Source: Anolis carolinensis
Taxonomy: Eukaryota
Assembly (NCBI RefSeq): GCF_035594765.1
Contig: NC_085846.1
Coordinates: 18,525,190 to 18,589,189, forward strand
Length of the DNA stretch: 64,000 nt
Reading direction: 5' to 3'
The notes below the pieces were generated by a model, which was not told where the DNA came from, ran no database searches, and worked only from the letters and a program-made list of their open reading frames with translations. Positions 25,082-27,232 of the stretch are shown in pieces. Numbering within the stretch: the first letter of the stretch is position 1; every line of letters starts with the position of its first letter. The position numbers and the translations under genes are program-made.

Positions 25082-26587
25082 CCAATTTATTTTGTTTTCC
25101 CCCACAAAACCGAGGTGACAAAGACAGAAATAGACCAAAAGAAATAAACACTAGCAGCTACAACAGCAAACCAATAGAAATAACAACCCATTTAGGTATG
25201 GCTGTCAATTGTTCTGATCTGAAGCATGCAAAGTAAGAATTCTCTTTATGCAGAAAACTAACACCCAAAGAAAATAAGGTATGAAAAACCTTCTGTAAAT
25301 ACATACAGAATTGACATAAATCAATAATAGCAAGAACATGTTCACACATCATAACCTAGTGATAACCAGATAAACTAGACATGTTTCAAGTGAAGTAAAA
25401 TGTACTGGATTTCTTTCAAGCAGTCTAATCTTTTTCACCTGGTTGTATGTATATGACATCGTATGTATATTATTATTTTCCCCATGTTACTCTAAACAAT
25501 ACACCTGGTCTTTGGCACTTTTTATTCATGGTAGCAACTGCTTAAATGCTATATGTTGTCTATGATGGATTTTGAGTTTGACTACTGGCAGTGGCACCAG
25601 GGTAAGACTTAGCCAACAGTCTAGGGCCTCGTGCAGCAAAATAAACAAAGGTGTCGACAAATGCAACACAGTTGGCTTGTCATATTTTGAAATAAGTGAA
25701 ATAATGCCAAAGTTTCAAGAAATTATTTGGGGTGTTACAACTCTACGATATGGGGAGATAAGTTTTTAAAAGTAATACATTTCCAGGCTGTGAATTATAC
25801 ATATTACCATCCTAAGAATCTTTCCTTTCTGTCTGGAGGATTCAAATCAGAGCCTAAAACTATTTTTATGGTGGCAGATAATATGCTATATATCTATACT
25901 GCAAGCATAGACAGAGGCATTTAGATTCTCATGCCATTAGGAAATTCCTGAAGAAGTTTCTTGGGATATATTAGCTGGCAGAGAGCCTAGTGCTAGCTTG
26001 CAAGAAGTTCGTCCAGTAACACGCCCTACCTTACTGTATTAAAAACTACAGACACTTCCAAGGATTTACAGTACTTGGGCAGAGCAGAAACCTCAGAAAG
26101 CAAGAGACAGCCAAGGAACAGAAGAAGAAAAAACACAGTCACAAGTCAGGAGAGAAGTAACGCTGACAGGTGGGTAGATTATATTTTACTTGTGTTCTGA
26201 TGGATCAAAGGTATGTTGAAATCCCAATAACATCTGGAGAATCACTGTTTCCCAGGGAGTGTTTTAGGATCAGGACATTCGCAGGGAAACCAAGATACTT
26301 GTTTATAAGGCTATTGTCCTTCCGACTCTATTGTGTATGCCCATGAAAGATGAAACCTCATTCTGGACTTCTGGAAAGATTCCATCAGTGTTGCCTCTGA
26401 GAAATCCTGCAAATCTCTTGGAAAGACAGGTGGACAAACATCACCATTCAGGAAGAAGCAAAGACTAACAGCATTGACGCAATGATCCTCCATTATTAAC
26501 TTCGCTGGCTGGCCACGTTGTCCAAATGCCCGATCACCATCTCCCAAAGCAGTTACTGTACTCTCAACTTAAAAACAAAAATTGGAA

Positions 26588-26800
26588 TTGTTGTGTGTCT
26601 TTCGGGCTGTGTGGCCATGTTCCAGAAGCATTCTCTCCTGACGTTTCGCCCACATCTATGGCAGGCATCCTCACAACCTCTGAGGATGCCTGCCATAGAT
26701 GTGGGCGAAACGTCAGGAGAGAATGCTTCTGGAACATGGCCACACAGCCCGAAAGACACACAACAACCCTGTGATCCTGGCCATGAAAGCCTTCGACAAC
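26588..26800. mobile_element. Penelope 3'-end insertion in inverted (fold-back) arrangement
   Basis: Perfect 86-bp inverted repeat, 26588-26673 / 26681-26766. Flanking direct repeat ACAAAAATTGGAA at 26575-26587 and 26801-26813. Confidence 0.88.
26677..26717 (+). ncRNA. Minimal type I hammerhead ribozyme motif (Penelope-associated)
   Basis: CCT-CTGAGGA-T-GCCTGC-catagat-GTGGGC-GAAACGTC-AGG. This gives a CUGAnGA core, a 6-bp stem II with two G-U pairs, GAAA, and GUC with cleavage predicted after 26714. Stem I is 3 bp; helix III is the palindromic ACGT, suggesting a dimer-dependent fold. Confidence 0.7.
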
Positions 26801-27232
26801 ACAAAAATTGGAATGTCAGTGGACAGCAAAAGAGATGTAAAAATGGGCTTAAAGCAAACCTTAAAAATGTGGAATAAACACAGAGAACTGTGATGCCCTG
26901 GCCCTTGAGTGCTCTAACTGGAAGTCAGCTGTTACCAATAGTGCTATGGGTTTTGAAGAGGCACAAATAGTGGACGAAAGGGAGAAATGCACTGAGAGGA
27001 AGGTATGTCAAGCAAACCCTTGTTGTGATTGCCTTCCACCTGGAAATCTATTTCCTCACTACAAAAGATCATGCGGATCCAAATAGGTCTGTACAGTCAC
27101 TTATGGACCCACCTACACTAGGAAGACAAACAAACTGTCATGAGTAATAGCTGATAGATAAATACATATATAGATATACATTTTCTTGCAGATCCCAGTT
27201 GTCTCGTGCTATCCCTTTTGCTTCCCTTCCAG

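Follow-up and report, generated by a model that had tools for sequence, protein, structure and literature searches.

A perfect 86-bp hairpin in a sulfotransferase intron of Anolis carolinensis: likely a recent PAc Penelope insertion primed from both nicked target strands

Insertions of Penelope retroelements follow a known layout in which an inverted pseudo-LTR (pLTR), a one-sided tail of 30-40 bp, and a target-site duplication are combined (PMC3846280, PMC8557442, PMC2377424), and the origin of their tandem and inverted structures has been called undefined (PMC8557442). The element closest to the one studied here is PAc (also Poseidon_Ac) of Anolis carolinensis, which has been described as carrying a reverse transcriptase (RT) plus a GIY-YIG endonuclease. 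In vitro, both strands of the target are cut and extended, two internal start sites are used with the tail between them, and a dimer is predicted; start-site use was equal between the strands, and the main text of that work reports no coupling of one start site to one nick (PMC11167929). The PAc ribozyme cleaves only with the PAc protein, i.e., the identical hammerhead stays uncut without it, and its activity is lost in a C3G mutant; no RNA-seq reads end at the ribozyme cut site (PMC11167929). More generally, the minimal type I hammerheads of metazoan Penelope-like elements have the same core, an extra base before stem II, a long stem II, and an ACGU palindrome without a stem III (PMC4209133, PMC6765202).

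Here we describe a further copy of this element in a 64,000-nt stretch of the A. carolinensis genome, below called the window. Positions 26669-26803 show two differences from the published PAc RNA template in 135 nt (133 of 135 the same; compared by eye), and on this identity the insertion is a stub of PAc that consists of pLTR sequence and the start of the PAc ORF, as one would expect from the Penelope origin proposed in an earlier sequence-only reading of the window. Its parts are as follows:

26575..26588, + strand: left copy of the target-site duplication, its final base in common with the left arm.
26588..26673, - strand: left arm, an inverted, tailless PAc stub whose own hammerhead has a G at C3 and no stem I.
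26669..26685, + strand: apex, native PAc sequence in which a 5-bp inverted microhomology (26669-26673 and 26681-26685) flanks a 7-nt loop, as seen from read-through in native upstream copies and from the published template; common to 426 copies.
26677..26717, + strand: minimal type I hammerhead with a 3-bp stem I, the core, a stem II of 6 bp that includes two G-U pairs, and a palindromic ACGU for stem III, predicted to be cut after 26714; found by pattern match and folding, and identical to the published PAc ribozyme.
26681..26766, + strand: right arm, a sense PAc stub with the start of the PAc ORF (ATG 26686-26688, 39 codons to 26802), from the inverted-repeat search and the published PAc.
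26767..26803, + strand: Penelope tail, which separates the two internal sites where reverse transcription starts (PMC11167929), with 26801-26803 in common with the duplication.
26801..26814, + strand: right copy of the target-site duplication, an exact repeat.

We read this hairpin as likely a recent, non-autonomous PAc insertion that was likely primed from both nicked strands and that intron 2 of a SULT gene likely carries as a near-neutral passenger, a reading to which we give a probability of roughly 0.78. Its sequence, hammerhead, cut site, tail position, and AT-rich target are those of PAc, and it differs in being non-coding and in consisting of 135 nt plus an inverted 86-nt copy, a type of insertion that the PAc main text does not discuss (PMC11167929). 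The 39 codons of the PAc ORF leave the locus without the full ORF of an autonomous element, and its membership of PAc shows in the one-ended tail of 34 nt (expected range 30-40 nt), the inverted 5'-truncated copy, and the target-site duplication. Endonuclease-positive Penelope insertions likewise have head-to-head arms of which one is tailed, a duplication, and a palindrome at the junction (PMC3846280, PMC8557442, PMC2377424), but the present one is of minimal size with its arms joined directly, and the counts given below oppose the self-priming reading of PMC3846280. A longer genomic copy (L160) has a 559-aa frame with a match to RVT_1 (8.6e-14), while Pfam at E 0.001 gave no GIY-YIG match for it. 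Element, ribozyme, and layout are already known, and the locus is one of hundreds of like hairpins; it is ordinary in itself, and its value is as a record of mechanism.

An inverted-repeat search placed the arms at 26588-26673 and 26681-26766, each 86 nt long and 100% complementary to the other with a 7-nt loop between them, and folding gave this hairpin an energy of -190 kcal/mol (z = -28). The sequence-only reading had already recognized the perfect 86-bp repeat with its 7-nt loop, in which there are indeed zero mismatches, and had also noted a flanking duplication of 13 bp. The exact duplication is 14 bp long (26575-26588 / 26801-26814), and the lower figure results if the last base of the left copy (26588), which doubles as a base of the left arm, is excluded. 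The unpaired tail of 34 nt at 26767-26800 has no counterpart on the left side. In view of the duplication, the tail, the recurrence of the apex in 426 copies, and an empty site that is collinear (see below), an assembly artefact is unlikely. The arms consist of retroelement sequence and come with a tail, which rules out that the hairpin is a MITE, and a microRNA gene is ruled out as well, with Rfam hits that fall below threshold and are generic hairpin matches (mir-2041 with 62.5 of 70 bits, mir-1295 with 53 of 100). A probable MITE with 37-bp inverted ends and internal repeats does lie at 29080-29871, in a later intron of the same SULT gene.

The hammerhead pattern has a single match in the 64-kb window, on the + strand only, versus 0.02 expected. 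All of the CUGANGA, GAAA, and NUH core as well as stems I and II are present on the + arm (CTGAGGA at 26680-26686, stem II at 26688-26693/26701-26706, and GAAACGTC at 26707-26714), with a stem I of only 3 bp and a palindromic ACGU at 26710-26713 that replaces stem III. The predicted cut after 26714 is the published PAc site and falls 26 nt past the start codon (26686-26688). On the - strand arm, C3 is replaced by a G and the partner of stem I is absent. These results agree with the first description of the locus, which had placed a hammerhead core with a cut after 26714 on the + arm and found the - arm to lack the first C and stem I. Its term "intact" is apt for the complete minimal core, but not for a stand-alone ribozyme, given the 3-bp stem I and the missing stem III. 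Among 47 Rfam matches at the locus, no hammerhead family was found. Compared with the minimal type I hammerheads of other Penelope-like elements (PMC4209133, PMC6765202), the one studied here stands out by its 3-bp stem I and its placement directly behind its own antisense copy.

The insertion lies in sense orientation in a 5'-UTR intron of a SULT1-type gene, a position that had been proposed before and is borne out by spliced contigs that begin upstream of 25075. These contigs come from runs X17 and X18 (a single study; presumed RNA, with GT..AG joints), and their path runs from 25075 to 26052, from 26169 to 27233, and then through six more joints; no splice joints were found among the contigs examined for X19 and X20. 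The splice from 25075 directly to 27233 that had been predicted correctly made the insert intronic but missed the exon at 26052-26169. Around the insertion, the host gene is organized as follows:

24667..25075, + strand: most upstream 5'-UTR exon seen of the SULT1-type gene; X17 and X18 contigs join 25075 to 26052 at GT..AG.
26052..26169, + strand: second non-coding exon, without ATG; joints 25075-26052 and 26169-27233 in X17 and X18.
26170..27232, + strand: intron 2, which carries the insertion at a distance of 419 nt from either splice site; from spliced contigs.
26367..27020 (right limit is the end of the query), + strand: older RT-encoding LINE fragment, which we take to be RTE-like, interrupted by the insertion; 3661 candidate copies, with an RT-type frame in one of them (L211).
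27233..27380, + strand: first coding exon of a gene for an intact cytosolic sulfotransferase of 296 aa (SULT1C-like), from contigs, Pfam, and the best PDB match, SULT1C3.

Searching the insert for splice or poly(A) motifs revealed none. The gene belongs to a tandem cluster on the + strand of the window (4400-63000) that comprises at least six SULT1-type genes, and the window also contains four older Penelope fragments that are 86-90% identical (2638-2771, 10427-10558, 35730-35853, and 44645-44736).

When the insert and one copy of the duplication are removed in silico, the host LINE fragment is collinear without gaps with 7/7 other LINE copies, the nearest of which are 86-87% identical, and an open frame runs across the site. 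The right arm and tail of the insertion have a 100% match in all 40 scored of 702 candidates. In X17 and X18, the match of contigs from the unique right flank ends exactly at 26801 with 172 and 66 letters beyond, while X1, X2, and X10 each have one 76-nt contig that is exact over 26540-26588, a stretch of which other host-LINE copies share at most 25 exact letters, and then diverges. This pattern of an empty site was found in 5/8 runs and a filled junction in none among the contigs listed, where X3, X19, and X20 have no junction piece and are silent on genotype. From the match end points of contigs at the junctions, we strongly infer that the site is empty in these five runs. The insertion is likely recent and probably polymorphic, and the earlier view of a young, possibly polymorphic insertion is supported by both the 100% matches and the empty-site contigs. 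The assembly also differs from every run showing positions 24805, 24807, 24882, 25002, and 25932, and given these five assembly-only differences the insert may lie on an uncommon haplotype.

The most far-reaching claim of the sequence-only reading was that the antisense arm cages the hammerhead, i.e., that it keeps an otherwise active ribozyme from cutting the SULT pre-mRNA and that the insertion is tolerated for this reason. The insert is indeed intronic and sense, and folding predicts the sequestration itself, as the hairpin is favoured over the hammerhead fold by 71 kcal/mol, or by 61 kcal/mol when the 3' end of the hammerhead has just been made. Activation by the PAc protein would even make cutting in germ cells conceivable (PMC11167929). 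However, a lone arm already disfavours the hammerhead fold by 7-10 kcal/mol, and the published ribozyme showed neither cleavage without protein nor RNA-seq ends at its site (PMC11167929), just as a single minimal hammerhead from a different Penelope element is inactive. The exact 41-nt hammerhead motif has 12,566 genomic matches, and the first 30 hits represent 23 distinct units of which 15 have an adjacent inverted partner and 8 do not. Moreover, the Penelope fragment at 10427-10558, between exons of another SULT gene, is an older sense copy that is uncaged and has altered CpG bases. The inactivity without protein, the inactive single hammerhead elsewhere, and the frequency of uncaged copies mean that tolerance needs no cage; with 426 same-apex hairpins in the genome besides, the claim is unsupported and we regard it as very improbable. 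The hammerhead alone would not be expected to cut, and its trapping in the pre-mRNA is predicted as a side effect of a hairpin that is likely a routine insertion product of the element and not a selected cage.

We assign a similarly low probability to the idea of a regulatory allele, in which intron 2 would be partly retained and the 86-bp duplex of carriers would reach the processed RNA and reduce the output of the SULT gene through editing, dicing, or a block to scanning. Apart from the hairpin energy of -190 kcal/mol, it could draw on unspliced contigs of intron 2 (26140-26432 and 26801-27259 in X17/X18) with a depth of 32-48 versus 102-107 at the spliced joint and 3-22 in other listed introns, which make partial retention of this 5'-UTR intron possible in animals without the insert. 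Contig depth is nevertheless a poor measure, X17 and X18 are one study and both apparently lack the insert, and intron 2 contains 25 ATGs so that retained forms are probably untranslated anyway. There are thousands of long transposon-made hairpins in the genome, and carriers of the allele would offer a clean test of what an intronic duplex does to a detoxification gene.

How the hairpin arose can be asked across its relatives, since the exact 34-nt apex has 426 genomic matches (control 0). We examined 90 loci, which account for 92 of the 100 places listed (of the 426), and 87 of them could be scored. Only 8/87 are perfect over 86 bp, and 40/87 have exact duplications of 12-15 bp. In 83 units, 121/343 arm mismatches fall at 6 CpG columns of 72, and this CpG-weighted pattern is ordinary decay. 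In native copies with upstream DNA, the sequence continues straight through the CCTCA-loop-TGAGG, i.e., the apex is part of the element.

The published reading of such palindromic junctions is self-priming (PMC3846280), in which a single cDNA or antisense RNA would fold back at CCTCA/TGAGG and copy itself before the endonuclease resolves the hairpin and leaves the tail. Taken alone, the geometry of the present locus fits this account, the loop-bearing arm being both longer and tailed, and identical arms with rare variants in common would be expected. The orientation of the loop marks the would-be template arm and a copy cannot exceed the length of its template, so that the side of the tail tests fold-back. 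Among the 87 same-apex units, 82 have a tail on one arm, 0 have tails on both, and 5 have no tail; the tail lies on the would-be copy arm in 50/87 and on the template arm in 32/87. Independent choice of start sites would have predicted 18 two-tail units instead of 0 (P about 1e-9). Similarly, 51 of 83 units not selected by their apex have an adjacent inverted partner, with 43 combining a tail with an arm from the second start site (site 2), 0 combining two tails, and 8 others, although two of the three sets behind this count had been picked for having a tail.

Units with a short stub are equally telling. In 15 of 19 cases, a stub of no more than 47 nt lies opposite an inverted arm beginning at site 2, within a duplication of 7-17 bp; this count leaves out 4 mutated or deleted longer copies and 29 longer copies, and one stub pattern with 263 matches yielded mainly point mutants (1 stub among the 30 loci examined). 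The long arms opposite such stubs reach 1.9 and 2.8 kb, and in these 15/19 units neither arm contains the other, so neither can have been the template of the other. Many junctions also carry short extra letters in place of the native hairpin. Taken together, these observations make fold-back unlikely as the origin of the hairpin.

What we favour instead is priming from two nicks. PAc would nick both target strands, as shown in vitro, at a distance of ca. 12-14 nt that is suggested by the duplications. Priming would occur at the end of the tail from one nick and at the second start site, 34 nt further upstream, from the other, an assignment that follows the genomic copies, and both cDNAs would extend as far as the approximate 5' end of a short pLTR transcript. 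This last step is suggested by 5' ends that accumulate 4-8 nt upstream of the loop (10/30 copies), 31-35 nt below a TATATA motif, a pattern that on the strength of the motif only would be run-off at a transcription start. The cDNA ends would then anneal via the element's 5-bp CCTCA/TGAGG repeat and be filled in to give the apex. The order of these events is reconstructed solely from the end products.

On balance, we favour that a PAc dimer assigns one internal start site to each target nick, which would give exactly one tail per head-to-head insertion, and that the template of both cDNAs is a single short RNA, or else two RNAs of common origin, with the cDNAs joined at their 3' ends. The two arms share their subfamily alleles in 77/82 and 78/81 pairs at two sites, and rare variants are common to both arms in 12 cases versus 0.9 when shuffled (49 left-tail units). 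Unless gene conversion evened the arms, they would thus derive from a single RNA or a single source. Stalling at site 2 during the copying of a single shared RNA is unsupported, as short-stub junctions show no pile-up at this site: the counts of true junctions at three offsets, two of them controls, are 7, 6, and 5.

Twin priming of L1 elements is the nearest parallel from outside the Penelope group. There, the second primer anneals in the middle of the RNA, the arms barely overlap because non-overlapping parts of the RNA are copied, and microhomology is found at the joint. Priming by both target nicks, the inversion, and the duplication are the same in both cases (PMC9148063), and arms primed separately from two nicks are indicated for PAc by the side of the tail and the short-stub units. 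In contrast, the starts of the two PAc arms are separated by 34 nt and both arms cover one segment of the RNA, which results in a palindrome with an overlap of 86 nt at the present locus. Our literature search, which spanned part of the older papers and to which the PAc supplement may add, found no two-nick priming account for Penelope. If this account is true, the inverted repeats and the tail share one cause, and overlapping twin priming replaces the self-priming model. The one-tail rule and the class of units with a stub and a long arm make a sharp prediction for PAc, the sole element with a working in vitro system.

Tandem arrangements of the same element were also observed. At one locus (L156, G000:C9:883929-886959), six tandem repeats of ca. 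80 bp each contain a whole PAc hammerhead, and a further, final unit behind them carries the tail; such an array could form a dimeric ribozyme. At another (L088, G000:C1:355043300-355044500), the hairpin unit and its duplication are present three times with a period of 201 bp and mismatches in common, and the tail is found in the last unit only. Finally, at L131-L134 (G000:C1:1061133-1065376), tailless tandem 220-bp pLTR repeats lie opposite a single inverted stub with a tail.
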